Shown: positions 5,551 through 58,748 of the stretch, in pieces
How the letters are laid out: each line of letters opens with the position of its first letter
Position numbering within the stretch: position 1 is the first letter of the stretch
DNA from: Candidatus Poribacteria bacterium
Lineage (GTDB): Bacteria; Poribacteria; WGA-4E; JAJDTR01
DNA: 64,000 nucleotides
Reading direction: 5' to 3'
Assembly: GCA_965222225.1 (NCBI GenBank)
Contig: CBDCTK010000002.1
Coordinates: 3,232,001-3,296,000, forward strand
Translations under genes and position numbers: made by a program
Notes under the pieces: generated by a model
What the model was told of the DNA's origin: nothing
What the model saw: only the letters and a program-made list of their open reading frames with translations
Database searches by the model: none

Positions 5551-5698
5551 GAGTTCTATCGATCAACCGAGTGAATAGCGAGGGCGATAGCAAATCCTGC
5601 TCATTTGATCTATTCGCTCGGTTGAGGGATCTCTATCGGAATTTGCTATCGCGTTCCCTATTCGGTCACTTGATCCCTCCTTATTCAGTCGGTTGATC
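5551..5698. mobile_element. Nested cluster of about 5 copies/fragments of the 37-nt GATCAA...TCCC element
   Basis: Forward copy 5561-5598; reverse copy 5638-5675 inside a split reverse copy (5676-5698 + 5626-5637); fragments 5599-5610, 5611-5625, 5551-5560. Confidence 0.75.
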
Positions 5699-9623: not shown

Positions 9624-11285
9624 ATGAAATTCTCAAAAATACTCACTGTTTGCTTGATGCTTGGATTTGGGCAACTCACTGCGACTTTCGCGGAGTCCAA
9701 GCTAGTATCTGGCGATCCGAACATGGATGATCGGTTTGCGAACATGGATGATCGGTTTGGCTGGTCGGTAGACATCAGCGGGCATACGATAATCGTTGGC
9801 GCCCCTAATAACCACGAGAACGACGTTATTGAGCATGGATCAGCGTATATCTTTGCACTCAAAAGAGAGGGAAACAAGGACAACTGGGAACAGCAGGCAG
9901 TGCTCGATCCCCAGGAGGACGGACGCCTGAACGATAACTTTGGTTACTCTGTGGGAATCGATGGCGACTATGCCGCAGCCGGATCCCCCGGAATTAATAG
10001 TTCCACCGGTGCCGTGTATACCTACAAGCGCACCGGAGGTGTTTGGAAGCAACAGCAGAAACTCATTCCCGCCGACGCAAAAAAGAGAGACAATTTCGGA
10101 TATTCCGTTGATATGCTAGGAGAGCATCTTATCATTGGCGCTTACCTTGACGATAGCAAAGCAGGATCTGTCTATATTTTCAATCGCAACGGGGATAGAT
10201 GGCGGCAGCAGGCAAAGCTGACCGGCAACGACACTGCCAAAGGCGACAATTTCGGCGTCGCGGTTGCCCTCGGTGGCAACGAGAACGGCGTCGACTTCGC
10301 CATTGTTGGTTCGCCCAACAACACGCACAACGGGAAAAAGTCGGGCGCCGCATATATCTTCGTTCATGACGGAGGAAAATGGACGGAAGAGGCTAAACTA
10401 GTGCCCGCAGACGCTCAAACCTCCGACTTCATCGGAGATGCCGTATCTATTAGTGGGTACCGCGGCATCAAGCGTTACGCCCTCGTCGGAGCGCCGCATT
10501 TGGACTTGGCGCAGGACGTGGAGGGAAGGAACAGCGCCGCCTACATCTTCTCAAGCGATGGAGGCGCGTGGACCGAGGAAGCCAAGCTTAAGGCTAAGGA
10601 TCCGGAGAAGGCAGACGGCTTTGGATCAGGCGTGTCAATCAACCGTAATATCGCGCTAGTCGGCGTGCCGCGTCACGGGGAAGGCGCTATTCTGGACGGT
10701 GAACTCAATGCGGGAATTGTCTATCCTTATCTTCGGGAAGGCGACGGCTGGACTAGGCAACAAGCGCGGGCAACCACGGTAGCTCCGGACTTTCCGGAAC
10801 AGAGTTTCGGAAATGTAGTAATAGCCACGCAGGAGTTTATTGTCATTGCTGCGTACGGCTTGGGAAAGGGGAACCCCGGTCGCGGCGATCCAATGGGAGG
10901 TGCGGTGTATGTCTATCACACCCAAAGGGATTGGAAGCTGCCCTACGCCGTTGAACCGTCTGTACTAAGGGCGGCAACGCTGGGCGGAATAAAGCGAACG
11001 GCGCTATTCCAGAATTTTCCGAATCCATTTAATCCGGAGACCTGGCTGCCGTATCAATTGGGGCGCAAGTCAAATGTGACTCTCCGCATCTATAACACGC
11101 GAGGGCATCTTGTGCGCCGATTGGATGTAGGGCTTCAGCCGGCGGGCAGTTATCAGAACAAAGAAACCGCTGTCTATTGGGACGGTCGAGATCGATTGGG
11201 ACAGCCCGTCTCCAGCGGCCTCTATTTCTACACACTAACCGCAGGCACATCTCAAATCACGCGCAGAATGCTAATTTTGAAATAG
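9624..11285 (+). CDS. Secreted FG-GAP repeat beta-propeller protein with C-terminal FlgD-Ig/sorting-like domain
   Basis: Signal peptide, repeated DNFGYSV..G..A.VGAP...G.VYIF units, C-terminal ALFQNFPNPFNPETWLPYQL...SSGLYFYTL; 21-bp in-frame tandem duplication at 9718-9759. Confidence 0.85.
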   Translation: MKFSKILTVCLMLGFGQLTATFAESKLVSGDPNMDDRFANMDDRFGWSVDISGHTIIVGAPNNHENDVIEHGSAYIFALKREGNKDNWEQQAVLDPQEDGRLNDNFGYSVGIDGDYAAAGSPGINSSTGAVYTYKRTGGVWKQQQKLIPADAKKRDNFGYSVDMLGEHLIIGAYLDDSKAGSVYIFNRNGDRWRQQAKLTGNDTAKGDNFGVAVALGGNENGVDFAIVGSPNNTHNGKKSGAAYIFVHDGGKWTEEAKLVPADAQTSDFIGDAVSISGYRGIKRYALVGAPHLDLAQDVEGRNSAAYIFSSDGGAWTEEAKLKAKDPEKADGFGSGVSINRNIALVGVPRHGEGAILDGELNAGIVYPYLREGDGWTRQQARATTVAPDFPEQSFGNVVIATQEFIVIAAYGLGKGNPGRGDPMGGAVYVYHTQRDWKLPYAVEPSVLRAATLGGIKRTALFQNFPNPFNPETWLPYQLGRKSNVTLRIYNTRGHLVRRLDVGLQPAGSYQNKETAVYWDGRDRLGQPVSSGLYFYTLTAGTSQITRRMLILK

Positions 11286-12362: not shown

Positions 12363-13862
12363 TCAATTGCAACTGAACGAATAAAGTTTCGCGTTCCGCA
12401 GTTCAAACTTCAATCGTATTTCCTTCCCGTTAGCGCCGTTAGCGCCGATAGGATCCCATCCAGCCTTCCATGTTATCACGCCGTTGGTGATGGTACTCCA
12501 GACGGGTTCACTGTCTACAAGTGTCGCACCCTGTTCATCAACAACCGCGGCGCGGACGAACCCGCCAGTCTTCACGTCTGCCGTGATCCGCAGCGACCCG
12601 AAATAGCCTGTTATCGGTTTGGTCGTAATGCTGGCAGGCTTATCCGCCGATATCGGCTCGTAACCGGCGAAACCGTCGGGCCGCAGTGTCGCCAAACAGA
12701 AAGAGCCGACTCGCCAACCGGAATGTGGACCATCGCTAGCGCCGTAGTACAGACGCACCTCCTCATCCAAAAAGACAGGATTCGCGGCAGGGTACACGCA
12801 CCCCCAATCGAAATCATCTCGCTCGCTGCCTTGTGGAATCAGCGGCGAACCGGGGCATACCCGATGCCACTGAATCGTGTCCGGGCTCCAAGCCAACTCC
12901 GTATGAGTTCGATCGGTTTCCGTGTTGTAGATTGCCGGTAATCCGAGATAAATCCCCTGATACCGAAACACCGGCATGCAATAGATTTGCAGATGGGGCA
13001 TCTCTCCTTCAAACGCCTGCTCGACCTGCGTCCACTTGAGGAAATCCTTGCTAGCGACTCGTCCTACCGCGCGCACTCCCTGCTCCTGTCCATTAACCGT
13101 AACCTTGGTTTCGCTGCTCATGCGGGTAAAACCGACGTCTTCCCCACGTTCGGGAACCCACAAAGCGTTGTTGGCGCTATCCCAAGCAATACCCGCTTCC
13201 GGGCAGGGAATCTCTCGGCCCCAGCGTACCCCATCGGCGGAGAACGCAACCGCCAACATCTGGTGCCCTGTGGTATGCCCAATCATGAACGCCTTATAGC
13301 GCCGCGCGGAATCCGAATCCCGTAAATCTTTGAACACGCTTGCCCCATGCGGTCCCCGCACGGCAATGTTATTTTCGCTGTTCCCGAGAAACTCCACAAA
13401 CCCCAGTTTCGGTTTCTCCCAGTGGAAACCGTCTTTAGAAAAAGCGTAGCAAATCCCCTCGTCCCTATCTTCCGGCGATTTGTAGGGAGTTTCTTCCCGC
13501 TCTTCGAGCGTCATGCCTCTGGCGGAGTTGTCAATGATAAACGGCATGTACCAGCACTTGTATAACTGTTCCTCTTCGTCATAAATGACCCTTGCGTAGA
13601 GGTTGTCATAGCGTTTCTCCCACGGCTCGTCTTCACCAAAAAGAGGATTGGAGGCGTGTTTTTCTACCACCCCGAGAGTCAATTGTGCATTTTGAGTGTT
13701 CGCAACAACACGCGAATCAAGCAGAAGGTATCTTTCTTTTTTCACGTCTTCATCCTTCTTTCCGTGGGCGCCGTCCGTCGAGAGACTATAAATTGCCATG
13801 GCGAGCACAACTGTCACTGCCGCCGCCATCTTACCATCGAACCTTGTACGCCGTGCCTTCAT
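12363..13862 (-). CDS. Secreted glycoside hydrolase-like beta-propeller protein (intact copy)
   Basis: Signal peptide, Asp-box-like SKDGFHW, SADGVRW, SKDFLKW, SPDTIQW; C-terminal LATLRPDGFAG...AKLYSFS. Confidence 0.75.
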   Translation of the reverse strand: MKARRTRFDGKMAAAVTVVLAMAIYSLSTDGAHGKKDEDVKKERYLLLDSRVVANTQNAQLTLGVVEKHASNPLFGEDEPWEKRYDNLYARVIYDEEEQLYKCWYMPFIIDNSARGMTLEEREETPYKSPEDRDEGICYAFSKDGFHWEKPKLGFVEFLGNSENNIAVRGPHGASVFKDLRDSDSARRYKAFMIGHTTGHQMLAVAFSADGVRWGREIPCPEAGIAWDSANNALWVPERGEDVGFTRMSSETKVTVNGQEQGVRAVGRVASKDFLKWTQVEQAFEGEMPHLQIYCMPVFRYQGIYLGLPAIYNTETDRTHTELAWSPDTIQWHRVCPGSPLIPQGSERDDFDWGCVYPAANPVFLDEEVRLYYGASDGPHSGWRVGSFCLATLRPDGFAGYEPISADKPASITTKPITGYFGSLRITADVKTGGFVRAAVVDEQGATLVDSEPVWSTITNGVITWKAGWDPIGANGANGKEIRLKFELRNAKLYSFSCN

Positions 13863-14397
13863 GATAACATCCCACAACAATATCCACTAGACTTGTACTT
13901 TTAACAGGTTACTCCAAACAGATGCCAATGACGGTGCCGCTAGCAACAAGTTGATGTGCCTCGGTAACAGGCAGATCGCGAATTACGGCGTTTCCAGACG
14001 GTAGGGCTTGAGGAAGAGCGGTAAATCAATCCGGTGCAAGTCCGGCAAAAATCGGATTCTTCACGCACATCCCTAAACTATAGTTTAACCTTACTTAAAT
14101 AATACGTCAACACAAAGAATCACTTGCGAAAAGTGTTATCATCAACGAGACTCCCTACTTGCAGGGGCATAGCCATGACCGCTTTTTCTGGACACAATTC
14201 GCTGAACGTGCTACAATAAGATTTATTCGGTTAAGATTGTTAGCACGCTATAAACAGATTTTTTTGAAAACTTGGTTTCTGTCGCTTTATTCTAGCGACA
14301 AGGAAGTGCCATTCATTGCGATCCTCTAATTAAAATGCGAAAGCGGCGTAATAAAATTTTTCCGCCCAAAAAACTCTATCAAGAAGGAGGAGTGTTA

Positions 14398-16562: not shown

Positions 16563-17330
16563 ATGGATGCAATTTCCTGTCGTAAATGCGGCGCACAGCT
16601 TGCCAAACAGGAGTTTATTGAGAAGAATCATAGAGTCTGCCCGGAATGCAATCATCATCACTATTTGAGCGCATTTGAACGTCTTGAACTATTGGTTGAT
16701 GACGGCAGTTTTGAATCGCACGACGACGGGCTTTATTCGCTCGATCCACTGGAATTTCCAGACTACGTGGAAAAACTGGAAAGAGACGCCGCCAAAACCG
16801 GATTAAAATCGGAAGTGCTCGCCGGTATTGCGAAAGTCGGAAGCTATCCGGTGGCAATTGCAATCGGCGATGTCGGGTTCATTGGTGGAACATGTGGATC
16901 CGTTATGGGTGAAAAGGTGACGCGCTGTATCGAACGGGCAACCGAAAAAAAACTGCCCCTAATCGTCGTCTCCGTAAGCGGCGGGATGCGAATGCAGGAA
17001 GGTACGCTCGCTCTGTTGCAAATGGCGAAAACGGCGGCGGCATGCGTGAAACATTCCCAAGCGGGACTCTTTTTCATTTCCGTATTAACTGATCCGACCT
17101 TCGGAGGAGCAACCGCAAGTTTCAGCTCGCTCGGTCATGTCATTGTCGCTGAACCGGGGGCACGCATCGGATTCGCGGGACCTCTCGCAATTGCGAGCAT
17201 CCGCGAAAAGTTGCCCGACAACTTTCAAACCGCTGAATTCCTGCTTGAACATGGGTTGTTGGATCGAATCGTGCACCGTAACGAGATGCGGCCGCTTCTC
17301 ATAAATCTCCTGGAATTCAGTGCGTCGTAA
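16563..17330 (+). CDS. accD: Acetyl-CoA carboxylase carboxyltransferase beta subunit
   Basis: C4 Zn finger, GGTCGSVMGEK, SGGMRMQEG..L.QMAK, DPTFGG, AEPGARIGFAG. Confidence 0.95.
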   Translation: MDAISCRKCGAQLAKQEFIEKNHRVCPECNHHHYLSAFERLELLVDDGSFESHDDGLYSLDPLEFPDYVEKLERDAAKTGLKSEVLAGIAKVGSYPVAIAIGDVGFIGGTCGSVMGEKVTRCIERATEKKLPLIVVSVSGGMRMQEGTLALLQMAKTAAACVKHSQAGLFFISVLTDPTFGGATASFSSLGHVIVAEPGARIGFAGPLAIASIREKLPDNFQTAEFLLEHGLLDRIVHRNEMRPLLINLLEFSAS

Positions 17331-17347
17331 TTTCAACTACGCGTTAC

Positions 17348-17413
17348 GATCAAACGAGTGAATAGCGAGTGCGATAGAAGATCCCATAGTAAATCCCGTG
17401 CGATAGCAATCCC
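17348..17413 (+). mobile_element. 37-nt element plus two stacked 3' fragments
   Basis: Full copy 17348-17385, ATAGTAAATCCC 17386-17397, GTGCGATAGCAATCCC 17398-17413; flanks GCGTTAC | ATCACGCATTA. Confidence 0.75.
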
Positions 17414-17542
17414 ATCACGCATTAGCTTTATGACATGATAAACTACAAGGTTTTCAGCGTTTGGCCGCGGACGTACTACTTATATCAGCACTACTAGCTC
17501 ATTTTTTCTTATAAACATCGCAATTATAGTGGAGATTAGATA

Positions 17543-42490: not shown

Positions 42491-44938
42491 TCAGGAGGCA
42501 ACACCTGCGTCGTCAATCACGCCCAATTTCCCGCTTACATCACCGGTCTCGCCTAATTCAACTGGCATCTCGCCGGAAGGTGCGTTGCCTTGTCCCATTC
42601 GTAGCTGACGTTCAGCATCAACCACATCGCGGTTGATTTTTGCGATACATCGATCTAATTTGTCCAACAGTGTGCCATGTCCCTCCATTGCGCGGCGTGC
42701 CTGACGGAGAAAGTCTATCACAAGTCGAAATGAACGGACAAAATCGCCGTCAGCAAGATCCGCATACCTGTGGAGTTCCTCAAATTCGCAACCTCGGCTC
42801 CAGGCAAGCATTGCCGTACTCAGCTTGGTTTCAAACTTCGGCGTGACCTCCGCAACACGGTGCAACGCTTCCAGAACGCGCAGACCTTCAATCTCCCTAT
42901 CCGCCGATTTCAGAACCTGTTTTAATCGGTTGTCATACAGTTTTCGATAGTGCCCCGAATCCTTCCGTGGTTCGGAGACAATCGCCATCATCAAGACATT
43001 GATATCGTCTTCGCCCAGCTTCTCAAAAAAACCACCAAACAGCAACAGAGAGATTTGCATTTCATAACCCGAAATCCGTGAGGCAATCTCCCCTCTAGGT
43101 AACAAATCAGCTTCCCCTATATAACCGAGTTCTTCAAGCACTTTAAGACGGGATGCAATCTGCCTTTGCTGAAAGTGCTCAAAATGATCGCGTTCTCGGA
43201 CGAGGGTTTCAACTTGGCTGGTGAATTGCTCAATTTCCTGATACTGTTGCTGGCACAACTTAAATCGTTGGCAACCGTGGCACAGACTGTCCTGTAATAT
43301 GGACTCAACTTGTCGCATCTGCTGATTATTGTAAGCAAGTTTCTTGAGCCGCATTCGCTTATTCTTGCTGCCACGGTGTTTTCGTTTTATTTCTAGGCGT
43401 TTTGCTTTAAGAGTTTGTTTCTGATCTGTGACGTCGTTGAGGAGATCGAGGTAGTTGGTAACCTGCTCGGAGGCATCCAAATGTTCGTGAACACAGATTG
43501 GCAACGGCGAACTCTTGAGCCCCTTTTCGGCGTGCTTGAGGTCTTTATCAATTTTACGAATTCGCGTGTAGTTTTGGAAATTACTTAAGCTAACCGTACA
43601 AACATCGTATATGTCATTGCCGTACTTCTGGTACAGATTCAAAATGCTTGAATAAGAGAGGTTAAATTGACTCCCAATCGACTCAATCTTATCGGAGGTG
43701 ATTTTTCGGACCTTCTCAGTGTCCGTAAATCGAGGATTGACCCTGGCATAGACGTAACCGACGGGATCGATGCCGCGCCGCCCGGCGCGTCCCGCCATCT
43801 GATGATATTCGCGTGCTTTTAGATAGCGGAAACCGACTCCATCGAACTTTTCTAGGCCCTCAAATATCACCGTACATGCCGGCATGTTAATGCCCACAGC
43901 GAACGTTTCTGTCGTGAAAAGCAACTGCACCAGCCCGGAAGTAAACAGTTGTTCGACTACTTCCTTCAAGGTAGGCAGCATCCCGGCGTGGTGGTAGGCG
44001 ACCCCTTTCAAAATCAGACTGCGCAACTCGGACGCCTTCCGATTATCCTGAATACCGTGCCGTACGCACAGCGAATCAAACAGGACGAGGATCTGTTCCC
44101 GTTGTTCCGCTTTAAGAAAACTACGCCGGGAGGCGTGGGCATAGGACTCGGCGTTTCGCTCACACTGCTTGCGGCTAAAGGAGAAGTATAGACAAGGCAG
44201 CCGCTTACGTTTTTGAACGTAATCCACCAGATCTTCGCGAACCAGGTTGGGCATTCCATCAGCAACGATTTCGTCAACCTTCTCGTCGTCATGAAGATGA
44301 TTGAATTTGTCGATAATCTGTTGACTCCGCAGCAGATCGTCGATTGTCCCAATGCCATATCCGTCGAGGTAGAGGTAATGTTCAAGGGGCACGGGCCGTT
44401 CAAGTTCCTGAACCACATCAATCTCTATCTCTCGGACGCTGCGCATCCAATCCCCGAACTGATTGATATTCGGTATGGTCGCGCTCAAACACGTAAATTT
44501 AATATGTTGTGGAGCGAAAATGATGCTCTCTTCCCACACCGTCCCCCGTTCAACGTCGTTGATGTAATGAATCTCGTCAAAGATAGCGTATTCTACATCC
44601 GACAAGCGCTCAATATCGTCAAAAATCGTGTTTCTGAAGATTTCCGTTGTCATCAACAGAATCTGGGCATACGGATTGAGCACCACATCTCCCGTTAGGA
44701 TACCCACTCGGTCGCCATACCGTTTATAGAAATCTCGATATTTTTGGTTACTCAGAGCTTTGATTGGCGCCGTGTAAATCACGCGTCGATCGTCCTGAAT
44801 ACACTTGTCAACTGCATACTCCGCAACCACCGTTTTGCCCGCTCCGGTTGGAGCGGCGACAATGACAGAACGCTCCTGATCTATTGCCTGGATAGCTTCT
44901 TCTTGGAACCGATCGAGCTGTAAACCCCTGTAGAACAT
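42491..44938 (-). CDS. Ski2/HelY-like DExH RNA helicase
   Basis: APTGAGKT, PIKALSNQK, DEIH, LSAT, HHAGMLP, TETFAVGINMPA, QMAGRAGRRG, DSHCT-like C-terminus. Confidence 0.93.
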   Translation of the reverse strand: MFYRGLQLDRFQEEAIQAIDQERSVIVAAPTGAGKTVVAEYAVDKCIQDDRRVIYTAPIKALSNQKYRDFYKRYGDRVGILTGDVVLNPYAQILLMTTEIFRNTIFDDIERLSDVEYAIFDEIHYINDVERGTVWEESIIFAPQHIKFTCLSATIPNINQFGDWMRSVREIEIDVVQELERPVPLEHYLYLDGYGIGTIDDLLRSQQIIDKFNHLHDDEKVDEIVADGMPNLVREDLVDYVQKRKRLPCLYFSFSRKQCERNAESYAHASRRSFLKAEQREQILVLFDSLCVRHGIQDNRKASELRSLILKGVAYHHAGMLPTLKEVVEQLFTSGLVQLLFTTETFAVGINMPACTVIFEGLEKFDGVGFRYLKAREYHQMAGRAGRRGIDPVGYVYARVNPRFTDTEKVRKITSDKIESIGSQFNLSYSSILNLYQKYGNDIYDVCTVSLSNFQNYTRIRKIDKDLKHAEKGLKSSPLPICVHEHLDASEQVTNYLDLLNDVTDQKQTLKAKRLEIKRKHRGSKNKRMRLKKLAYNNQQMRQVESILQDSLCHGCQRFKLCQQQYQEIEQFTSQVETLVRERDHFEHFQQRQIASRLKVLEELGYIGEADLLPRGEIASRISGYEMQISLLLFGGFFEKLGEDDINVLMMAIVSEPRKDSGHYRKLYDNRLKQVLKSADREIEGLRVLEALHRVAEVTPKFETKLSTAMLAWSRGCEFEELHRYADLADGDFVRSFRLVIDFLRQARRAMEGHGTLLDKLDRCIAKINRDVVDAERQLRMGQGNAPSGEMPVELGETGDVSGKLGVIDDAGVAS

Positions 44939-45052
44939 TCAAATCTCCCAAACCCAAGTAACACCGGCATGATTATAACTGTTTCCGCCCCTTTTGTCAA
45001 ATGTGAATACCCGGTTAAAGGTCAATTGCACCTGATTGTTGCGACCCTGTAG

Positions 45053-45224
45053 GATCAAGCGACCGGATAGGGAGCGCGATAGTAATCCCGATAGTAAATC
45101 CCATAGCGAAGGCGATAAGGATCCCTCTCTTGATAGGGATTCCTGTAGGTGTGCAACCGTCAAATAGTCGATTTCCTCTCTTACTGCGATCAAGCAACTG
45201 AATAAGGAGTACGATAGAGATTTT
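45053..45224 (+). mobile_element. Cluster of 37-nt element copies
   Basis: Full copy 45053-45089, 3' fragments 45090-45102 and 45103-45125, second full copy 45188-45224; a reverse fragment lies at 45365-45381. Confidence 0.7.
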
Positions 45225-45549
45225 CAGGTTTTATGGAAAACGAAAACATGAAAATAAACCGACGGGCGACAGATGAATAGAATGAAAGTGAAGTGACTCC
45301 ATTGGTGCCTAATGCGCAAGGACGACCGCAATACTGCTCGCAACTGCAGGTCTCGATCAGGAGAAGATCTCTATCGCACTCAAATGCCCAGAAATAATTT
45401 TGCTATCTACTTTTCAAAAGGGCTCTAAATCCCTAAAATCCGACGCGGTTGCCCTGCCGTAACATTGAAATCTATAGACAAGGATTCGCGAATTGGTATA
45501 AAATACCATCTAATCGGCAGAACTATCCTATTATCGTGTGAGGAGAGCT

Positions 45550-47466
45550 ATGAAGATTTTCGTTCCCGGCCGAATCTGCCTATTTGGGGAACATAGTGAT
45601 TGGGCCGGAGGCTACCGTCGCATCAATGCAGATTTGGAAAAGGGATACACGCTGATTACTAGCACCAACCAAGGCGTGTATGCCGAGGTGAAACCCCATC
45701 CCACAAAACTTATTTTCCGCACAACGCTGAGCGATGGCGAGCGGAAGCAGCCATTTGAATTGCCGATGGAACGGGAGGCCCTGCTCGCGGAGGCCGAAAA
45801 AGGAGGGTTCTTCAGTTATGCCGCCGGTGTCGCTCACCAAATTTTGACGCATTACCATGTGCGCGGAATCGAAATCGACAACTATCTCACAGATCTTCCC
45901 GTAAAGAAAGGGCTGTCATCTAGTGCGGCAATCTGTGTGCTTGTGGCTCGCGCCTTCAACCGCGTCTACGACCTCAAGATGACCACGCGCGGCGAGATGG
46001 AATCCGCCTACATCGGTGAGATTACCACCCCTTCGCGTTGTGGTCGAATGGACCAGGGCTGTGCTTACGGCAGCCCCGTTATGATGATTTACGATGGCGA
46101 CCGGCTTGACGTCAAGGAATTCAATGTACCGAACGACCTCTACTTTGTTATCGTGGATCTCGCCGCCGATAAAGACACCAAAGAGATATTAAGCGCGCTC
46201 AATCGCTGTTATCCGTTCGCCGAAAACCAACTTCAAAGGAATGTTCAGGAGTATCTTGGACCAATCAACGCCAGAATAACAAATGCCGCCTTTAATGCCT
46301 TACGAAGTGGAGACGCTGCGCGAATCGGTCAATTGATGACGGAGGCACAAGCAGAATTTGACGCTCATCTTCAACTAGCCTGCCCTTCGCAACTGACAGC
46401 CCCGGTTTTGCACCAAATCCTCAAATATGAACCCCTGCAACCCTACATTCTGGGTGGTAAGGGAGTCGGGTCTCAAGGAGACGGTTCCGCGCAATTCATT
46501 GTCGCAGATAAGCAGATTCAGCGGAAAGTCATCGAAATCATTGAGCGCGACCTAAAAATGCCATGCCTTGAACTTGTGATCGAGGCAGGGCGGGGCGTGC
46601 GAAAAGCGGTGATCCCTGCTGCGGGATTCAGTACCCGTTTGTTTCCTGCCTCAAAGGGCATCATAAAAGAGTTATTCCCGATTATAGATCGTGAGGGAAG
46701 AGCTAAACCAGCCATCATGGCATTAATCGAAGAAGCCATAAACGCTGGAGTTGAAGAGGTATGTCTCATCGTTCAGCGCAGGGATCGCCAGCTTTTTGAA
46801 GATTTCTTCAATACCCCGCCTCCAATCGAGAATTACAACCGACTTTCCAAGGAAGACCAAGCCTACTGCCAGTACCTAATGGATATTGGACGGCAAGTCA
46901 CGGTAATCACACAGGAGGTTCAGGAAGGGTTTGGGCATGCCGTTTTCTGCACGAAGGAATGGGTCAACGGGGAGCCCTTCTTGCTCATGTTGGGCGACCA
47001 TCTGTACGCCTCCGACAGCGAAACGTCGTGCGCGAGGCAACTTCTGGACGTTTATGATCGGGTCGGGCATAGCGTTGTTGGATTGAAAACAAGCTCTGCA
47101 GAGGAACTTCATAACTTTGGCTGTGTGAGCGGTGTTTGGCAGGACGATTCTCTTCTTTCGGTAACAGAATTCTATGAGAAACCGCCGGTCGAATATGCAC
47201 GCAAGCACCTTCATGTTGATCGAATGGAGGAGGATCTCTTCCTGACGGTATTTGGACTGTATGTACTCGCGCCACAGATTTTTGACTTTCTCGAAGAAAA
47301 CATTACCCATAATCTCCGCGAAAGAGGCGAGTTCCAGTTAACCCCTTGTCTTGACACACTCCGGAAAGAGGGCAATTTTTCCGGGTATGTTCTCAAGGGC
47401 AGACGCTTTGATATTGGGCTCCCCGAGGCATATAGGGCTACAGTAATCGATTTTCGGAATGCGTGA
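45550..47466 (+). CDS. Bifunctional GHMP sugar kinase / nucleotidyltransferase (GalU-like)
   Basis: PGRICLFGEHSD, PVKKGLSSSAA, CGRMDQ, GGKGVGSQGDG; then KAVIPAAGFSTRLFPASK, QEGFGHAV, LGDH. Confidence 0.85.
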   Translation: MKIFVPGRICLFGEHSDWAGGYRRINADLEKGYTLITSTNQGVYAEVKPHPTKLIFRTTLSDGERKQPFELPMEREALLAEAEKGGFFSYAAGVAHQILTHYHVRGIEIDNYLTDLPVKKGLSSSAAICVLVARAFNRVYDLKMTTRGEMESAYIGEITTPSRCGRMDQGCAYGSPVMMIYDGDRLDVKEFNVPNDLYFVIVDLAADKDTKEILSALNRCYPFAENQLQRNVQEYLGPINARITNAAFNALRSGDAARIGQLMTEAQAEFDAHLQLACPSQLTAPVLHQILKYEPLQPYILGGKGVGSQGDGSAQFIVADKQIQRKVIEIIERDLKMPCLELVIEAGRGVRKAVIPAAGFSTRLFPASKGIIKELFPIIDREGRAKPAIMALIEEAINAGVEEVCLIVQRRDRQLFEDFFNTPPPIENYNRLSKEDQAYCQYLMDIGRQVTVITQEVQEGFGHAVFCTKEWVNGEPFLLMLGDHLYASDSETSCARQLLDVYDRVGHSVVGLKTSSAEELHNFGCVSGVWQDDSLLSVTEFYEKPPVEYARKHLHVDRMEEDLFLTVFGLYVLAPQIFDFLEENITHNLRERGEFQLTPCLDTLRKEGNFSGYVLKGRRFDIGLPEAYRATVIDFRNA

Positions 47467-47482
47467 AACCTTTGGCTAACCT

Positions 47483-47548
47483 GTAGGTTGGGTTGAACGC
47501 TCAAGCGAGCGATTAGCGAGTGCGATAGAGATTCCCGTCAAACCCAAC
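47483..47548 (+). repeat. GTAG REP-like element interrupted by a 37-nt element (47499-47536)
   Basis: GTAGGTTGGGTTGAAC [insert] GTCAAACCCAAC; uninterrupted homolog at 50844-50874. Confidence 0.8.
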
Positions 47549-47657
47549 TGTTTGACCTCCGTTTTTCGCCCCGGCGGGAATCTTCCACTCCTCCAATCCG
47601 ATTCAGTCAAGCCTCTTCAGAAGATAGATTTTAGTACCTAAACTTGCGTAACGCCTT

Positions 47658-49343
47658 ATGTCGGACAAGAAAATAGAAATCCTGCTGCCGGGATTGGCAT
47701 TCCTTGCCATCTGCGCCTTTGCGGCATACGGCGAACAACGTCTAGAAGGATCCAACGTCCTTGTCTGGTACAGCATTGTCCCACCCCTTCTTGCTGTCAC
47801 GTCGGCAATTGCGACACATCGATTGCTGTTGAGCCTAGGATTAGCGGTAGCCGTCGGAATTGTTCTCTCGTCAATACGAATTATGTCGTCTCACGTCTGG
47901 GATTGGTTCCCTTCTGTATACAGCCAAACCGCATCGGGCGCAAAATCGGTCGTAGATTCTTTCAACCTTTTGGTAATTCTTTTCATCGTATTGATTCTGT
48001 CGACAATCTCGGTCGTGATTGTGTCCGGGGGAATCCAAGGCATTATCCGTTGGCTCTCGCGATTTGCGAAAGGCGCGCGTTCAACCCAGTTGGTCACTGT
48101 TCTCATGGGATTTGCCGTTTTCATTGATGATTATGCCAACACGATGATAGTTGGGTCGGCGATGCGTACCGCAACCGACCAAAAACGGATTAGCCGCGCG
48201 AAACTGGCATACCTCGTGGATTCCACAACCGCTCCCATCGCGGGCTTGGCGGTGGTGAGCACCTGGATCGGGTATGAAGTTGGGCTGTTCAATGAGGTCG
48301 CCAATTCGTTAGGCATACAAAAAGACGGATATTCCATGTTTTTCGACGCCCTCGTATTTCGCTTCTATTGCCTGATAACGATCATTTTTGTTCTTGCAAA
48401 CGCACTCAGTGGCATCGATTTCGGTGCAATGCGAAAAGCGGAGATACTTGCCCGAGAAACCGGAAATGTGGTTGGTGAAGATGCGAAACTGATGTCCTCA
48501 AGAGCATTTTCGACGTTGAAATCTGCCCCATCAGCGATTGTGCACCCACTCACCGCGGTTATCCCGATTGGGACCCTTCTCGGAGTCATGTTGGTAGGAT
48601 TCTGGATCGATGGCGGCGGGAAAGGTTTCGTGCTGTCGCCATCGGCGTGGCGTGAGGCATTATCCAATGCGAACAACCTCAAAATCTTGGCAATCGCATC
48701 CGGCAGTGGTTTCCTATTGGCGATTGTCTGTGCGAAGCTGCTAGCGCGGATAAGTTTTTTCGAGATTGGAGTCGCCATAATCTCCGGTCTCAAAGGCAGC
48801 TTGCTGCCAACAGCGGTTCTCGTCCTAGCATGGAGTTTAAAAGCCGTCTGTGAGCAACTTTCGACGGGGGACTTTCTCGCAGCAACGGTCGAAGGTGTGG
48901 TTTCGCCACTATGGTTCCCCGCGCTTCTCTTCATCGTGGCGTCCCTGACTTCGTTCGCTACCGGCACCAGCTGGGGCACTATGGCGATTCTCATCCCGAC
49001 CGCCATTCCGATTGCGTATTCACTTGATGGAAGTACCTACGGATTGACGACGGCAATCAGCTTAGGAGCTGTGCTTGACGGATCAATCTTTGGCGATCAC
49101 TGCTCGCCTATTTCCGACACGACCATCATGAGCTCCATCGCGAGCGAATGCGACCCGATGCACCATGTGCGCACCCAACTTCCCTACAGCCTGACTGTTG
49201 CCGGGCTTGCGCTAATCTGTGGCTACGTCCCGGCGGCGCTGGGGATTTCATCGTTCGTCGGGATAGGTGCCGCCGGGATTCTAATCGTCCTGTTGTTCTA
49301 TGCCGTTGGCAAGTTTGGGGCGAGTCGACAAGGGATTTCATAA
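47658..49343 (+). CDS. Na+/H+ antiporter NhaC family transporter
   Basis: FIDDYAN, AYLVDSTTAP, SFATGTSWGT, FGDHCSPISDTTI.SS, HVRTQLPY. Confidence 0.9.
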   Translation: MSDKKIEILLPGLAFLAICAFAAYGEQRLEGSNVLVWYSIVPPLLAVTSAIATHRLLLSLGLAVAVGIVLSSIRIMSSHVWDWFPSVYSQTASGAKSVVDSFNLLVILFIVLILSTISVVIVSGGIQGIIRWLSRFAKGARSTQLVTVLMGFAVFIDDYANTMIVGSAMRTATDQKRISRAKLAYLVDSTTAPIAGLAVVSTWIGYEVGLFNEVANSLGIQKDGYSMFFDALVFRFYCLITIIFVLANALSGIDFGAMRKAEILARETGNVVGEDAKLMSSRAFSTLKSAPSAIVHPLTAVIPIGTLLGVMLVGFWIDGGGKGFVLSPSAWREALSNANNLKILAIASGSGFLLAIVCAKLLARISFFEIGVAIISGLKGSLLPTAVLVLAWSLKAVCEQLSTGDFLAATVEGVVSPLWFPALLFIVASLTSFATGTSWGTMAILIPTAIPIAYSLDGSTYGLTTAISLGAVLDGSIFGDHCSPISDTTIMSSIASECDPMHHVRTQLPYSLTVAGLALICGYVPAALGISSFVGIGAAGILIVLLFYAVGKFGASRQGIS

Positions 49344-49373
49344 TCGCTACAGTTTTTCCGCAGTCTGACCTTC

Positions 49374-50054
49374 ATGCACGTCAATGAGTTACACCGGCGT
49401 CTCGCCCAACGCTATCCACTGAGGCAGGAAATCATCCAACTGGCGAATCGGAAAATCGCCGTAACGGTTGTGGTCGATCCGGACCAATTCCTTGATGAAT
49501 TGAGCACGGAGGAGAAGGACGGCGAATTACGCCTGCCCTATTGGGCATATCTATGGCCATCTTCAATCGCACTCGCGCGTCATCTGGATCAGATGGACTC
49601 GCCGAAGTCCCAGCGGGTTTTAGAAATCGGCTGCGGATTTGGGGTGTCGGGAATCGTCGCTTCCCAACGCGGCGGAGACGTTCTGTTTACGGACTATGAA
49701 AAGGACGCGCTGCTGTTTGCGCAATATAACGCCCTTCAAAACAGCTGCATTGAGGGAGCATCTTTCGCTCAGATGGATTGGAATGCCCCATGTTTGAAAG
49801 GCCGGTTCAGCCGCATTCTGGCGGCGGATGTAGTTTATGAGGAGAAGAATTGGGAACCGATTCTCGCCCTAATCCAAGAACATCTTGCCGTTAATGGCAC
49901 GGCGATAATTGCGGAACCGAATCGAGCTAACGCGGATGGATTTTTCGATCTGTTCAAACGCCACGGATTCACGTCGGAGGAATTCGGGTATACGGCTCTC
50001 TTGGAGGAAGACCCCTCCACCATCACCGTTTACTGTATTAGGAGGGGGGGTTAA
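49374..50054 (+). CDS. Class I SAM-dependent methyltransferase (METTL21-like)
   Basis: PYWAYLWPSSIALA, VLEIGCGFG, TDY, MDW, ILAADVVYE. Confidence 0.88.
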   Translation: MHVNELHRRLAQRYPLRQEIIQLANRKIAVTVVVDPDQFLDELSTEEKDGELRLPYWAYLWPSSIALARHLDQMDSPKSQRVLEIGCGFGVSGIVASQRGGDVLFTDYEKDALLFAQYNALQNSCIEGASFAQMDWNAPCLKGRFSRILAADVVYEEKNWEPILALIQEHLAVNGTAIIAEPNRANADGFFDLFKRHGFTSEEFGYTALLEEDPSTITVYCIRRGG

Positions 50055-50200
50055 GCGACTTGGAAGAATGGAAGGGCGGAAGATTGTAATGAGGTGTAAT
50101 GGTCAGATAAATAGCAGACACTTGGAACTCTTCACAGTTTTTGTAGCCGTTTTATTCAGCGCTAATCTGCTTCCCCTCTTTTTGTCTTCTCACGCATTAC

Positions 50201-50305
50201 GTTCAACCGAACGAATAGATCAACTGAGCGGATAGCGAAGACGATAGAGATCCCAGGGCGATAGTAAATCCCGTGCGATAGAGTTTCCAGCGCGATAGAG
50301 TTCGC
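50201..50305 (+). mobile_element. Five-piece stack of the 37-nt element inside a CACGCATTAC/ATCACGCATTA repeat
   Basis: 5' piece 50201-50217, full copy 50218-50254, 3' pieces 50255-50272, 50273-50288, 50289-50305. Confidence 0.75.
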
Positions 50306-50373
50306 ATCACGCATTAGCTACTGTAAACCATATCGTTGGCTAATACATAAAGAAGGAAGAATCTAGAACGTCC

Positions 50374-50814
50374 GTGAAAGTTGTGAAAGATACCTACCAA
50401 ACACACAGCCCGAAAGAAACACAGACAATCGGTCAACAGATTGGCGAAACCCTGAAAGCTGGTGATGTAGTCGCGCTTGTCGGCGATCTTGGAGCGGGCA
50501 AGACTTGTCTGACGCAGGGCATTGCTCGTGGGGCTCGCATCGCTTCCCACGAGGTTGTCAACAGCCCGTCCTACACCCTCATCAATGAGTACGCGGGGGA
50601 AATACCAATCTACCACATCGATCTCTACCGCCTACCAGGCCACGGCGAAATCGTCAATCTTGGATTAGAGGAATATTTGGAGGGAAACGGAATTTGCATC
50701 ATTGAGTGGGCGGACCGGATGGCCAATTTGCTGCCCGCGAACCACATCCAAATTACGATGAGTTGGGTTGATGAGTCAACCCGCGTGATTGAATTGCAAC
50801 GAATACCCACCTGA
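50374..50814 (+). CDS. tsaE: tRNA threonylcarbamoyladenosine biosynthesis ATPase
   Basis: GDLGAGKT, VNSPSYTLINEY, YHIDLYRL, IIEW. Confidence 0.95.
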   Translation: MKVVKDTYQTHSPKETQTIGQQIGETLKAGDVVALVGDLGAGKTCLTQGIARGARIASHEVVNSPSYTLINEYAGEIPIYHIDLYRLPGHGEIVNLGLEEYLEGNGICIIEWADRMANLLPANHIQITMSWVDESTRVIELQRIPT

Positions 50815-50843
50815 AATAGGTCACTCGCACCCGATTCTCGCCT

Positions 50844-50874
50844 GTAGGTTGGGTTGAACACAGTGAAATCCAAC
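50844..50874 (+). repeat. Uninterrupted GTAG REP-like element
   Basis: GTAGGTTGGGTTGAACACAGTGAAATCCAAC. Confidence 0.7.
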
Positions 50875-50968
50875 TATTTAGCCTCCATTCCTTCCCTCCA
50901 GAGAAAAGATCCATTGGGGACGGTGTGGAAGATGTTCCCCAACCTTCCGCTCTTCCATCCTTCCAACC

Positions 50969-51811
50969 CTATTCCCACGTCCGCTTCAATGGATCATGGA
51001 TATTGACCGTCAACGCAGGCCCCAACCCTTCTATCTCAAGGCGCAGCGTGTCGCCGTCTTGAATCGGCGACAGCGATTCATGGTGGGTTCCGGTGGACAC
51101 CACATCTCCCGGTTCAAGCGTCAAGACGTTGGTAACCTCCTCAAGCAATTCGGGAATAAAGCGATCCATGGAGTTGGAGGAGAAGTCATGTCGTAGGTCC
51201 TCGTTCACCCAAAGCCGGATGCCGAGTTCATTCGGGTCTTCAATCTCATCCGCCGTGACCAGTGCGGGGCCCATCGGCGCGAAAGTATGCCAACTCTTCC
51301 CAAGGAAAAAGCCTCCGTGCAAGCCGCGGGCTGAGCCGTCTATGAATTGCGTGTATCCGAATACGTGATCCATGGCGTCGGCTTGCGAAACCCGGCTTGC
51401 TGTTGTCCCGATCACCAATGCCAACTCCGGTTCAAAGTGAAAAACGGTGGCATCGGATGAAGGAAATTCGGAGGTGTCGCCTGTGCCGATAATACTCGTC
51501 GGCGACTTGAGGAACGCATTAAACTCTCCACGATCGGGTGATGCAGGTTCAATATAATTTCCGGCGAGGCAGACCAATTGGCCAGGTCGCGGTAGCGGCG
51601 CTCTGAGACGCACGTCCGCAAGTGACTCGCCGTCTCCCCCAGCAACCGCGCTTTCTATTTCAGGTTCGAGGTCGCTGAAATCCTCAATCAGCATTTTCAT
51701 CAGCTCTTGCGGCGTATGGTAGGATATGCCATCCACCGCGGAACCTGCATCAATAATTCGATCGCCCTTTATCACACCAAGTTGGTAGTCATTGAAAAGC
51801 GCAAGCTTCAT
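50969..51811 (-). CDS. Fumarylacetoacetate hydrolase family protein
   Basis: FLKSPTSI, HFEPELALVIG, GKSWHTFAPMGP, TLEPGDVVSTGT. Confidence 0.9.
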   Translation of the reverse strand: MKLALFNDYQLGVIKGDRIIDAGSAVDGISYHTPQELMKMLIEDFSDLEPEIESAVAGGDGESLADVRLRAPLPRPGQLVCLAGNYIEPASPDRGEFNAFLKSPTSIIGTGDTSEFPSSDATVFHFEPELALVIGTTASRVSQADAMDHVFGYTQFIDGSARGLHGGFFLGKSWHTFAPMGPALVTADEIEDPNELGIRLWVNEDLRHDFSSNSMDRFIPELLEEVTNVLTLEPGDVVSTGTHHESLSPIQDGDTLRLEIEGLGPALTVNIHDPLKRTWE

Positions 51812-52111
51812 TTCTTAATCTCCTTGTAGAATCTGTTTCAAGGTGGTGTATTACTACGACATGCTGGGAAAATCCACGCGATAGCGAAAATGAATTAACG
51901 AGTAATGCGTGATACGTAATGGAGTCATTTGGACATTCGGCATCACATTATATTATGAAGGTTTCATTATAGCACGGACGATGTCAATATGGAATAAATA
52001 TCGTTGCATGGTGGGCAATGCCAACCAAAATAATAACGCAAATTGGCACGAAAAAAGGCAGGCCACTACCGACCTGCCTTCCATTACATGTGTTTCAGTA
52101 ATTTCTGTGAT

Positions 52112-53194
52112 TTACCGCTCGCGATCGCCATCAACAAATTCTTGCAATTGTTGAAGTGCGAGACCATCTTCATCAATTGAAATTGGCGGGTGTTTGGTCA
52201 ACACTGCCGATGCGGAATGGAGAGGTCCCGAAACACCCCGGTCAAGCCCTACCTTCATGAATCGAGCCATGTCCGCTATCACGCCGCCAAAATTCGCGCT
52301 GTCTTCCACCTCAAGTTTCGCCTCGAAGTGCAGGGGCGCTCCGCCGTAATTGACGCCATCGACGTAGAAAATCGCAGTTTTGCGGTCACCCATCAACTCG
52401 ACGTAGGAAAATCCTGTGGAAATCTCGGTCTCCGGCGAAACCAACGACGCAAGCGCCTCCCGTTTTGTTTTGTGTTTCGACTGCCCACGATGAACGAGGT
52501 TGTAAAAATCTGTGTTGCCGGCGTAGTTTACCTGATACGTGCGTTCAACATGGATGCCTCTGGCTTTCAACAGTTGAAGGAGCGCTCGATGAATCGCCGT
52601 CCCACCAAGTTGACTCTTCACGTCGTCGCCTATGAGCGGGACGTTGTTTTCCACTGCCGCCTGCTGGTAAGCGGGATCGCAAACAATCAACTCCGGCATA
52701 CCGTTAATGAAACCTATCTGGGCTTCTTTTATGGCAGCGTCCGCGTAAAATCTCGCGGCTTCCGCCGATGCGGTTGGCAGGAAGTTTAACAACATTTCCG
52801 CACCGCTTTCTCGCAGGACTTTAACGACATCCACCGGCGGTCGATCTGCAACTTCCACAAATTCTGCTAACGCCGGGGTAACTCCATCCATCACGGGCCC
52901 CATCTGCACCGTCACCCCACAATCCGCCACTTCGATATCCGGATATCGGTAAGCGATATTGGCGCCTGAAAAAATGGCTTTCGACAAATCTAATCCGACC
53001 CGGCGCGCATCGACGTCAAAGGCTGCCACCGGGACAATATCGGTGACTTTGTACCCGCCGATGTCAACATTGATGAGCCCGGGCGCCTCTGCTCCGAACT
53101 TTCGATAATAAGTCAAACCTTGGATAAAAGCGCTGCTACAATTACCAACACCAACTATCGCAACCCGTATTGGATTGTCTGCTTCCCATGTCAT
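52112..53194 (-). CDS. ino1: Myo-inositol-1-phosphate synthase family protein
   Basis: RVAIVGVGNCSS, AAFDVD, IGDDVKSQLG.T, QVNYAGNTDF, GDRK, KLEVEDS.N. Confidence 0.88.
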   Translation of the reverse strand: MTWEADNPIRVAIVGVGNCSSAFIQGLTYYRKFGAEAPGLINVDIGGYKVTDIVPVAAFDVDARRVGLDLSKAIFSGANIAYRYPDIEVADCGVTVQMGPVMDGVTPALAEFVEVADRPPVDVVKVLRESGAEMLLNFLPTASAEAARFYADAAIKEAQIGFINGMPELIVCDPAYQQAAVENNVPLIGDDVKSQLGGTAIHRALLQLLKARGIHVERTYQVNYAGNTDFYNLVHRGQSKHKTKREALASLVSPETEISTGFSYVELMGDRKTAIFYVDGVNYGGAPLHFEAKLEVEDSANFGGVIADMARFMKVGLDRGVSGPLHSASAVLTKHPPISIDEDGLALQQLQEFVDGDRER

Positions 53195-53274
53195 AAATTT
53201 TCTCCTTAAGCGGTGTACACTCGCAAGATGCGCCTCTCAGTTACGGAGTGCGCCCCGTGATGTTCAAATACCTT

Positions 53275-55731: not shown

Positions 55732-55783
55732 TCTCTTCTTAACTTTCCGGCTTCAATTCCTGATTCTGCAACGACCAAACCCT

Positions 55784-57061: not shown

Positions 57062-57151
57062 AAGGTTTTTTTACTTCAGCGTGTTTGATGTGTTTTCATG
57101 AATGTTTGTAATGGTCAGGAAGGTGCGAAACACTCAAAGTTGCTTCCCGCA

Positions 57152-57224
57152 GGGAACTCTATCGATCAACTGAGCGGATAGCGATGGCGATAGAATATCC
57201 TGCTCCCTATTCGGTCACTTGATC
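57152..57224. mobile_element. Forward 37-nt element (57164-57201) inserted inside a reverse copy
   Basis: GGGAACTCTATC [GATCAACTGAGCGGATAGCGATGGCGATAGAATATCCT] GCTCCCTATTCGGTCACTTGATC. Confidence 0.8.
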
Positions 57225-57618: not shown

Positions 57619-57671
57619 CCTCATTTTAATATCCCACAACGTCCCAACTTCCACGAAAAGGAAACTCAACC

Positions 57672-58703: not shown

Positions 58704-58748
58704 AAAGGCAGCGGTCAGTGGTTGGAGACTGTCTGAATCGCGGATTCA

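Follow-up and report, generated by a model that had tools for sequence, protein, structure and literature searches.

Nested insertion of a 37/38-nucleotide hairpin element as the probable origin of stacked fragments in a Poribacteria genome

What kind of process leaves a complete short repeat followed by a row of shortened pieces that all stop at the same end? The question is raised by a 64,000-nucleotide (nt) stretch of DNA from a Candidatus Poribacteria bacterium, here called the window (G000:C2:3232001-3296000; genome G000 consists of a 5.64-Mb chromosome and a 63-kb contig, with 50% G+C). In the spacer between accD and topA and at three further loci of the window, a non-coding element of 37 or 38 nt is followed by such pieces. 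The preliminary description of this DNA had offered two explanations, namely repeated insertion with deletion at one site, or abortive re-initiation and template jumping by a polymerase starting from a fixed template end, as in target-primed or telomerase-like synthesis. The analysis presented here favours, with a probability of about 0.62, stacks that are nests of a hairpin mobile element, inserted into resident copies of itself and afterwards altered by slippage.

The element and its stack in the accD-topA spacer

The spacer (window 17330-17542) contains the following features, and an unoccupied version of its target is found elsewhere in the window.

17341-17347, plus strand: left target flank, GCGTTAC.
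17348-17385, plus strand: full 38-nt element, GATCAAACGAGTGAATAGCGAGTGCGATAGAAGATCCC (58.4 bits, profile columns 0-37), composed of GATCAA, the hairpin AC-GA-GT / GAATA / GC-GA-GT, and then GC-GATAG-AAGA-TCCC; it corresponds to the single orthologous element in genome G005.
17386-17397, plus strand: 5'-truncated piece, ATAGTAAATCCC, columns 26-37, missing from the G005 ortholog.
17398-17413, plus strand: 5'-truncated piece, GTGCGATAGCAATCCC, columns 21-36, read as the orphan 3' part of an older outer copy.
17414-17424, plus strand: right target flank, ATCACGCATTA.
51903-51921, minus strand: "empty" target, CATTAC-GT-ATCACGCATTA (..CATTACGTATCACGCATTA; C2:3283903-3283913).

A full copy followed by 5'-truncated pieces had been described at four loci, and the coordinates hold, with a 37/38-nt full copy at each of them (17348, 45053, 50218 and 57582). 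The fixed TCCC end ascribed to the pieces is found generally, but the last two pieces within 50255-50305 end in TTTCC and TTCGC.

A strict pattern identified 386 copies in the genome, 262 of them 37 nt and 119 of them 38 nt long, with the consensus GATCAA-NN-GA-NN-G-R-ATA-R-N-GA-NN-GC-GATAG-NNN(N)-TCCC. The core pattern GCGATAGNNNNTCCC, with one mismatch at most, has 10 matches in the window against 0.9 expected. Both ends of the element are fixed (GATCAA.. and ..TCCC), and no inverted repeat relation was found between them. Watson-Crick covariation occurs at position pairs 7/23, 8/22, 11/19 and 12/18 (mutual information 0.43-1.33 bits). Among 220 distinct heads, 91.7% of the stem cells are paired, compared with 57.8 +/- 1.2% (maximum 61%) in column shuffles and 21-55% with slid partners. 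Folding of the given strand yields a short hairpin, NNGANN / GRATA / NNGANN, whose stem is interrupted midway by tandem G.A mismatches and whose unpaired bases are strongly conserved. Wobbles in the stem cells comprise 100 G:T against 19 A:C, and since G:T wobbles are found on one strand only, folding of the element must at some point take place in single-stranded DNA or in RNA. The hairpin occupies 17 nt, or 27 nt including the invariant ATC/GAT outer stem, a pairing that may extend it, as judged from the RNA minimum-energy fold. The evidence for this hairpin is covariation, not stability.

Order and pairing of the pieces

Position weight matrices built from the strict copies were applied to both strands, taking the best ungapped segment per diagonal. 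Anchors of at least 22 bits (n = 1999), together with secondary fragments of at least 12 bits lying within 12 nt of an accepted piece (n = 755), gave 1276 arrays, in which 991 copies are full, 652 pieces are truncated at the 3' end and 838 at the 5' end. Because segments scoring 12-14 bits are noisy across the genome, only the peaks of the start and end distributions were used. In the genome-wide histogram, fragment starts are not random, clustering at columns 0, 13-16, 20-21 and 24-26, and the ends gather at the element's own end, in columns 22-24 and in columns of about 17-20. A tail piece directly follows 133 of the 386 strict full copies, against 295 of 45,513 over all genomic TCCC. Neighbouring pieces had been said to differ in their variable blocks, and adjacent tails are indeed identical in only 7 of 393 pairs, against 12.5 +/- 3.4 under random pairing, so that the stacks are not copies of the neighbour. 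Random ends and mostly local tandem duplication had been named beforehand as the outcomes that would speak against the proposal; the end and tail-identity data point to neither.

In arrays with one full copy, 3'-truncated pieces stand upstream and 5'-truncated pieces downstream, a rule obeyed 876 times and violated 50 times. The upstream pieces come in mirror order, and what had been noticed earlier was thus the downstream half of a symmetric structure; upstream 3'-truncated pieces (such as 50203-50218), the covarying hairpin and the location of most copies inside other repeats had been overlooked. Arrays of three levels follow the mirror order in 11 cases against 2.

The pairing of the broken stems shows which pieces belong together. 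In 67 triplets, consisting of a 5' piece that ends in the loop or 3' arm, a full copy, and a 3' piece that begins at column 20-21 (the window array 50203-50272 is one of them), the two outer pieces pair with each other in 111/134 cells. The outer arms pair with the inner copy's arms in 69/134 and 70/134, the inner copy pairs with itself in 130/134, and the outer 5' piece equals the inner head in only 44/134. Pairing unites the two outer halves and leaves out the inner copy, which identifies the stacks as whole elements inserted into resident copies. The upstream break point also predicts the start of the downstream piece, the break classes being complementary: 0H-0E-tE was found 89 times against 7 for 0H-0E-kE, and 0l-0E-kE 67 times against 35 for 0l-0E-tE (Fisher p = 8e-19).

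In 214 nests the outer copy is short of exactly 2 columns in 83 cases and of 3 columns in 80, the main classes being 22|26 (n=50), 22|25 (n=44), 18|21 (n=27) and 16|20 (n=21). The main self-insertion point, columns 23-24, reads GC, and an inverted element of 37-39 nt interrupts about 17 additional resident copies at the same point. At the left junction there is G/GA microhomology, accompanied by small losses of target sequence. The first of the two earlier explanations, insertion with deletion at one site, was therefore essentially right: whole elements enter resident copies, with 2-3 nt replaced.

The other arrays located in the window are listed below.

5561-5698: full element on the plus strand (5561-5597) abutting a nested array on the minus strand (5599-5698); common to G005, and expanded there.
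45053-45125, plus strand: full element (45053-45089), tail piece (45089-45102) and loop-starting 3' piece (45103-45125); no array at the orthologous place of G005.
47499-47536, plus strand: element in the loop of another hairpin repeat (GTAGGTTGGGTTGAAC .. AAACCCAAC).
50203-50218, plus strand: 3'-truncated outer piece, TCAACCGAACGAATAG, columns 2-17, whose CC at columns 6-7 pairs with GG of the 50255 piece.
50218-50254, plus strand: full inner element inside the outer copy.
50255-50305, plus strand: the outer copy's 3' part (50255-50272) and two linker-plus-tail units (50273-50288 and 50289-50305).
57562-57618, minus strand: full element (57582-57618), then the minus-strand tails ATAGAGCTCCC (57571-57581) and ATAGAAAAT.. 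(57562-57570).
58749-58818, minus strand: complete nest of outer 5' piece, full inner copy and outer tail, which recurs at 60706-60776.

The recurrence of the last nest lies in a segmental tandem duplication (58730-59029 / 60687-60986; spacing 1957 nt, 83% identity over 300 nt), both copies of which carry the same three-part nested array.

Insertion into host hairpins and turnover

Most of the 790 clean-ended arrays are flanked by a few recurring sequences, which are other hairpin repeats. Four of these hosts, named here after repetitive extragenic palindromes (REPs), exist in an empty and a filled version; the bases in brackets are those replaced in the latter.

REP-A, TAGGCGGG[GCAT]CTTGCCCC: 15 empty, 21 filled.
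REP-B1, TAGGGTGC[GCA]CTGCGCACC: 58 empty, 21 filled.
REP-B2, GCGCACTGC[GC]ACCAGCC: 59 empty, 22 filled.
REP-C, CCCCAGNGGG[GCG]ACAGGT: 18 empty, 53 filled.

Inserts are most often 37 nt long, and in all four hosts the replaced bases start with GC, as they do at the main self-insertion point. When the first G and last C of the element are counted as target, REP-B2 and 22|25 are precise G/C insertions, and the other classes lose 1-2 more bases. Target-site duplication was not detected, flank identity in the 790 arrays being at chance level for k = 2-8. Among single inserts, 7/16 (REP-A), 4/16 (REP-B1), 10/17 (REP-B2) and 13/32 (REP-C) stem haplotypes were counted, and the REP-A inserts all differ in sequence (16/16); the several haplotypes per host point indicate several independent insertions at the same point. 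One orthologous pair of empty and filled sites adjoins the 3' flank of a Y1 gene. A kilobase-scale autonomous version was also looked for, and isolated 5' and 3' pieces showed no recurrent kilobase spacing, only inverted inserts of 37-39 nt.

Reuse of one target at 17348 had been proposed as well, and ATCACGCATTA does occur nine times in the genome, in five cases directly after the end of an element or array. The empty version claimed for the minus strand is present, and from its reading, CATTAC-GT-ATCACGCATTA, GT is the segment replaced. The target TTAC / ATCACGCATTA is a low-copy instance of the same behaviour as host-repeat insertion.

A further recurring structure is a composite of about 150 nt, found at least ten times with the same two element haplotypes (G000:C2 4528855-4528960, 5220510-5220615 and 4780181-4780320). 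Its layout is GTAGGGTGC[element]CTGCGCACCAGCCTCTAAAAGCCCCAGAG(T)GG[element]ACAGGTATGTAGCAGCCAACAATGAAAAC, and it has apparently spread as a unit.

The junctions show the following process. Whole copies stand inserted, in either orientation, at fixed points of host hairpins or at two or three fixed points of resident element copies, and each insertion replaces 2-4 target bases, usually starting with GC, with no target duplication. Self-insertion splits the resident into an upstream 3'-truncated and a downstream 5'-truncated piece, and repeated rounds build mirror-ordered stacks. Recombination or replication slippage between direct repeats of 12-17 nt would then delete or duplicate units, a step seen in a few cases and probably general, and the loss or gain of units would leave orphan tails, as at 17386-17413, and length differences between strains. 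Insertion itself would probably involve a discrete intermediate in single-stranded form, on which an enzyme of the HUH type (IS200/RAYT-like Y1, where RAYT denotes a REP-associated tyrosine transposase) or another structure-specific enzyme would act in trans.

Turnover is evident from the accD-topA spacer, which varies across the genus (ten genomes compared). In G005 a lone full copy is present, with G:C in the stem where G000 has A:T, a compensatory change. G001 retains the outer 5' piece, the full inner copy and the outer 3' piece, and G009 equals G001 minus 23 nt between two ATCAA repeats, the unusual first base of the outer copy being kept; this comparison indicates that orphan tails arise by deletion between direct repeats. 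The ortholog of 17398-17413 was found in both G001 and G009, in G001 with the outer 5' piece still upstream. By the tail type of their full copies, orphan stacks match complete nests and differ from solo copies, and copies that keep only an upstream piece have solo-type tails. In four of the ten genomes the spacer holds an unrelated 98-nt sequence devoid of the element, and in G001 and G009 it includes an additional hairpin repeat of about 200 nt (gaaaccgagtttttggtt .. aaaaactcggtttctgg). Over the syntenic 64 kb, about 3-4 of 10 array loci are common to G005 (5561, 17348, 57582 and partly 32563); the 50203 array is missing, together with its flanks, from G005 and G001.

Strains were compared over window 44500-58000 with contigs, not reads, of four public runs from four studies; joints linking different repeat copies were ignored, uncovered stretches carry no weight, and coverage of arrays by RNA-library contigs is not taken as transcription. 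The length heterogeneity that had been suggested as a check was found, the contigs differing by whole units of 13, 17 and 34 nt. At the 57582 array, one public run and G005 each have one extra 13-nt tail unit, which in the run lies behind 57561. In one RNA-library-run contig, 34 nt (two units, 50258-50291) are missing, with 7 shared bases at the joint, and another contig difference is a 17-nt gap (one unit) in the 50203 array. In contigs of two public runs, 27 different bases, the last of them belonging to another element head, stand in place of the 146 nt at 50067-50212; the 50203 array thus has a strain-specific left border, TTAC flank included. The elements fill and reshape intergenic spacers of two sponge-symbiont genera, where spacer length can serve as a strain marker, and short-read assemblies break at every copy.

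Candidate enzymes, rival explanations and setting

Fixed ends, a hairpin on one strand, a very short GC core, lack of duplication and hairpin targets together suggest a trans-acting, structure-specific enzyme for single strands that works on a discrete intermediate, and an HUH-type enzyme is our favoured guess. Pfam Y1_Tnp has five matches in the genome, of which two, P0001 and P0002, have elements on both sides; the flank analysis covered these two. Both were rejected as the cognate RAYT, having different REPs of their own (REP-C types for P0001, GTAG REPs for P0002), into which the element is secondarily inserted. P0001 is an IS200-like Y1 transposase of 157 amino acids (aa) (L011:1255-1728, minus strand; G000:C2:3080255-3080728), located about 150 kb before the window. 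Its homologs occur in several genera, and the flanking hairpin repeat changes by genus (AAAGCCCCAGAGGGGCGACAGGTGTATAG, ..GACATGTTTATAGA, CGCTCCAGAGGAGCGATATGTCTATAGA); P0001 and its repeat look like a co-evolving REP/RAYT pair that lacks the GTAG tag. A RAYT-like Y1 gene with one in-frame TAG lies at L011:9877-10350 on the plus strand (G000:C2:3088877-3089350), and its paralogs in related genomes are each placed between their own GTAG REPs (GTAGGAGCGATCTCCAGGTCGCGA, GTAGGCGGGGCATCTTGCCCCGCC, GTAGGTGCGGTTTCCAACCGCACC and others).

A link with Ssn-like GIY-YIG nucleases was likewise discarded, none of the five GIY-YIG matches in the genome being flanked by arrays on both sides. The small GIY-YIG gene P0003 has no array within 1.2 kb and occurs in 3/10 genomes of the window's genus (g1) and in 0/4 of g4, a genus of another family. 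A reverse transcriptase (RT) was dismissed too: the single RVT_1-like open reading frame (ORF), of 670 aa (G000:C2:4499560-4501572, minus strand; L063:1001-3013), reaches 26.8 bits against the Pfam cut-off of 29.6 and is patchy across genomes (6/10 in g1, 1/4 in g4 and 1/7 in g6), with in-frame stops in four homologs. Neither TnpB nor an IS110 transposase was found in the genome, and the Y2_Tnp search, with no match in this genome and none in any control genome either, was uninformative.

The location of most copies inside other repeats suggests another view, in which the 37-mer is not independently mobile and is a module of larger mosaic units resembling REPs or BIMEs, copied whole by RAYTs, with the insertions as old features. 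The composite with its two fixed haplotypes, the single haplotype prevailing in REP-B1 and the five Y1/RAYT matches would all suit such a module. Empty and filled versions of four host repeats coexist, however, the REP-A inserts are all different and comprise seven stem haplotypes, one and the same element occurs in unrelated hosts as well as within copies of itself, and the element is lacking in genus g6, where both the host REPs and the RAYT homologs are present. The module explanation is therefore considered improbable.

Plain slippage or unequal recombination in a degenerate sequence of 12-13-nt period, each third of which begins with GAT, would dispense with insertion altogether. Tandem Repeats Finder reports arrays of period 12 to period 17 at the four loci, strain differences in unit number are flanked by 7-nt repeats, and the difference between G001 and G009 is a deletion between ATCAA repeats. 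The five near-identical tandem units of 17 nt in G005 (tgcactGGGATCTCTAT on the plus strand; L190 ~13745-13900, G005:C1 ~5947745-5947900, ortholog of window ~25000) are a clear local slippage amplification of one linker-plus-tail unit. Slippage does not account for neighbouring tails that are no more alike than random ones, for an outer 5' piece that is unlike the inner head yet pairs with the outer 3' piece, or for discrete 37-nt inserts, some inverted, in unrelated REP hairpins. It is thus refuted as the origin of the stacks, has little chance of being the whole explanation, and is kept as a secondary process that trims and amplifies them.

A slim chance is given to the units being binding sites or structured RNA motifs under selection (for mRNA stability, termination or a nucleoid protein), with arrays as selected multimers. 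The compensatory change between G000 and G005 at an orthologous copy, the conserved unpaired bases and the intergenic location (1121/1276 arrays fall outside the 81% of the genome covered by crude ORFs) agree with such a function. Orientation to the flanking genes is nearly random, with 420 arrays in co-directional-gene spacers following the gene direction and 332 opposing it, which argues against a role tied to the mRNA strand. Presence and absence turn over fast at orthologous spacers, and many copies are split by others, which would destroy a functional unit. Rfam covariance models gave 0 matches at gathering score in the 64-kb window, and around 17250-17500, with E up to 5, the sole match was a chance one (E = 4.9).

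Target-primed reverse transcription (TPRT) or telomerase-like synthesis, in which a polymerase starts at a fixed 3' template end, aborts and re-initiates to leave serial 5'-truncated pieces, would explain the fixed TCCC end, the excess of 5'-truncated pieces, the left-junction microhomology with small target losses and, through an RNA stage, the strand-specific structure, but it is largely refuted as the main process and very improbable, given the mirror-ordered upstream 3'-truncated pieces, the pairing of outer halves with each other, the complementary break classes, the full inverted inserts at the same point, stacked tails that differ from one another, and the sub-threshold, patchy RT-like ORF with its stops. 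Stacked truncated copies with a fixed end need not imply reverse transcription, and nesting can be told from abortive synthesis by two simple tests, mirror order and the cross-pairing of halves.

Several observations weigh against nested insertion as the full account. The excess of 5'-truncated over 3'-truncated pieces leaves room for an extra process adding the former, and the short tail pieces near the 12-bit threshold include noise. Internal tails (ARYT and 38-nt types) are unlike terminal and solo tails (AGATCC type), a split that simple nesting of random family members does not predict. The 35 triplets of class 0l-0E-tE do not fit a simple single nest, and the nest class with its break at column 22|25, taken here as the most frequent one, admits no pairing test, so that only analogy and the inverted inserts speak there for excluding a tandem reading ("H H T T"). 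One haplotype accounts for 13/16 REP-B1 inserts and belongs to the composite of about 150 nt, which spread as a unit, and thus some copies do not stem from insertions of their own. Units are also amplified locally in tandem, as in G005 where G000 has another array, and in one strain the additional unit hardly differs from the one beside it. In thermodynamic terms the hairpin is marginal (-3.4 kcal/mol for the RNA form, z-scores near 0), and DNA folding does not predict the covarying fold and is no better than for shuffles. The mobilising enzyme was not found among the candidate families searched in the genome, homologs of P0001 and P0002 also occur in element-free genera (g6 7/7 for both, g3 5/10), and two traits, the 2-4 target bases usually lost and insertion in both orientations, appear atypical of HUH systems.

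A bolder and rather unlikely extension of nested insertion treats the 35-37-nt unit as a hyperparasite of REPs. Its single-stranded intermediate would be exchanged, by "cut-and-swap", for a GC-initiated segment of 2-4 nt in unpaired or breathing parts of hairpins on either strand, with an enzyme that reads a minimal hairpin (four free base pairs plus tandem G.A, and conserved unpaired bases). We know of no HUH/RAYT, serine, tyrosine or DDE transposase that carries out such an exchange. The variable tail block, whose types (ARYT, YAAA and AGAT) correlate with the insertion point, may help to choose the target; when a guide-like relation between tail block and flanks was tested, the only signal was an association with the following ATAG piece. 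At 37 nt the element is near the lower size limit for a discrete mobile unit, and it provides evidence, drawn from sequence alone, on what its machinery must read, namely a hairpin of free sequence and fixed geometry, with tandem G.A, on one strand. The hundreds of natural before-and-after junctions constrain the chemistry and could guide the search for the enzyme.

Elements of a similar kind reportedly occur in Nostoc punctiforme and its relatives, where the repeats SDR1-8 are said to have been described by Elhai and colleagues in 2008 as non-coding units of tens of nt, some of them hairpins, that insert into other repeats and into each other. The likeness would be one of functional kind, not of sequence family: less than 40 nt, no coding capacity, presence or absence at orthologous sites and nested insertion. 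The Poribacteria element differs in phylum and sequence, and in its 37/38-nt unit with a covarying 4-bp stem and tandem G.A; its nests have been quantified, with mirror-ordered halves and 2-4 replaced nt starting with GC, and the likeness is drawn on these general features, junction details of the SDRs being outside the comparison.

Insertion occurs 3' of a tetranucleotide such as TTAC in IS200/IS605, next to GTTC or CTTG in IS91, and between A and T in Helitrons. Like these HUH single-strand transposons, the element has a subterminal hairpin, fixed ends, a very short defined target, no duplication and a strand-specific structure. Unlike them, as they insert precisely, it usually replaces 2-4 nt, enters the same point in both orientations, and consists of one 37-mer that has one hairpin and is linked to no gene. 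Non-LTR copies made by TPRT and telomerase repeats share with it a fixed 3' end, a variable 5' extent and microhomology at the 5' junction, in contrast to its 652 equally ordered 3'-truncated pieces, its halves of one split copy and the lack of a co-distributed RT. It is also no miniature inverted-repeat transposable element, having neither terminal inverted repeats nor target-site duplication.

REPs, BIMEs and REPINs are described, in the consulted parts of PMC3116915 and PMC3479197, as short intergenic hairpins of hundreds of copies, often clustered, that are handled single-stranded by HUH Y1 RAYTs, and REP families inside palindromes are given in part of PMC3733652 (Di Nocera et al. 2013) for A. 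variabilis (GTAG-15), T. roseum (GTAG-23) and H. neapolitanus (CGTC-1). The element resembles REPs as a short intergenic hairpin repeat with hundreds of copies, in genomes that also have Y1 genes and classical GTAG REPs. As far as that part of PMC3733652 goes, it also shares with the GTAG and CGTC families a palindromic body of 20-40 bp, high copy number (991 full copies) and a mostly extragenic location. It differs in having no GTAG or CGTC tag, with GATCAA 5' and GCGATAG 3' of the hairpin, and true GTAG REPs exist separately in the same genomes. Its stem sequence is free, only the pairing being kept, and it parasitises REPs and nests in itself; unlike in a REPIN or REPtron, no RAYT is flanked by the element as its own REP (P0001 and P0002 examined), and there is no co-occurrence.

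The SRM consensus in the consulted part of PMC11893778 is HGTCWY(N0-2)YYVSBRH(N0-5)WNVSBRG(N0-2)RNCYNB; Ssn is there a cd10448 GIY-YIG protein whose gene is flanked by repeats, and SsnA activity is lost when the stem sequence is changed and the structure kept (PMC11893778). With the NTS/SRM repeats of these single-stranded DNA nucleases, as that part presents them, the element shares hundreds of hairpins that act single-stranded and orientation-specific conserved flanks; unlike them, it does not resemble the consensus (as judged by reading), and its stems vary freely.

Literature searches on Poribacteria with REP and on nested REP insertion yielded no description of the element. It seems known in kind, probably matching the very small nested mobile repeats reported from Nostocaceae and resembling REPs inside palindromes as far as the consulted source describes them. 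New are the mirror grammar, the proof of nesting by cross-pairing, the GC-initiated replacement with no duplication, the two orientations, the whole-unit heterogeneity among strains, the restriction to two genera and the negative enzyme results.

A strict 30-nt head pattern has 108-768 matches in 10/10 genomes of g1 and in 4/4 of g4. The search covered 176 Poribacteria genomes; of the remaining 162, five have 13, 4, 2, 1 and 1 matches and the rest have 0, and the reversed-pattern control gave 0 matches in all genomes searched. The 13 copies belong to G066, where they lie on 4 contigs and reflect either mis-binning or transfer. At least 125 records of a public genome collection carry the repeat, and among the matches listed all are "MAG: Candidatus Poribacteria bacterium". 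Within G000, 71 genes have arrays on both sides. Array density is very uneven, ranging from 5 to 81 per strand per 1/20 of the chromosome, and at G000:C2 ~1.534-1.581 Mb, 1.93-2.04 Mb and 2.70-2.72 Mb arrays occupy nearly every intergenic spacer, often in one orientation. A perfect 21-nt tandem repeat of two copies in the window (9718-9759; CGAACATGGATGATCGGTTTG) is unrelated to the element family.

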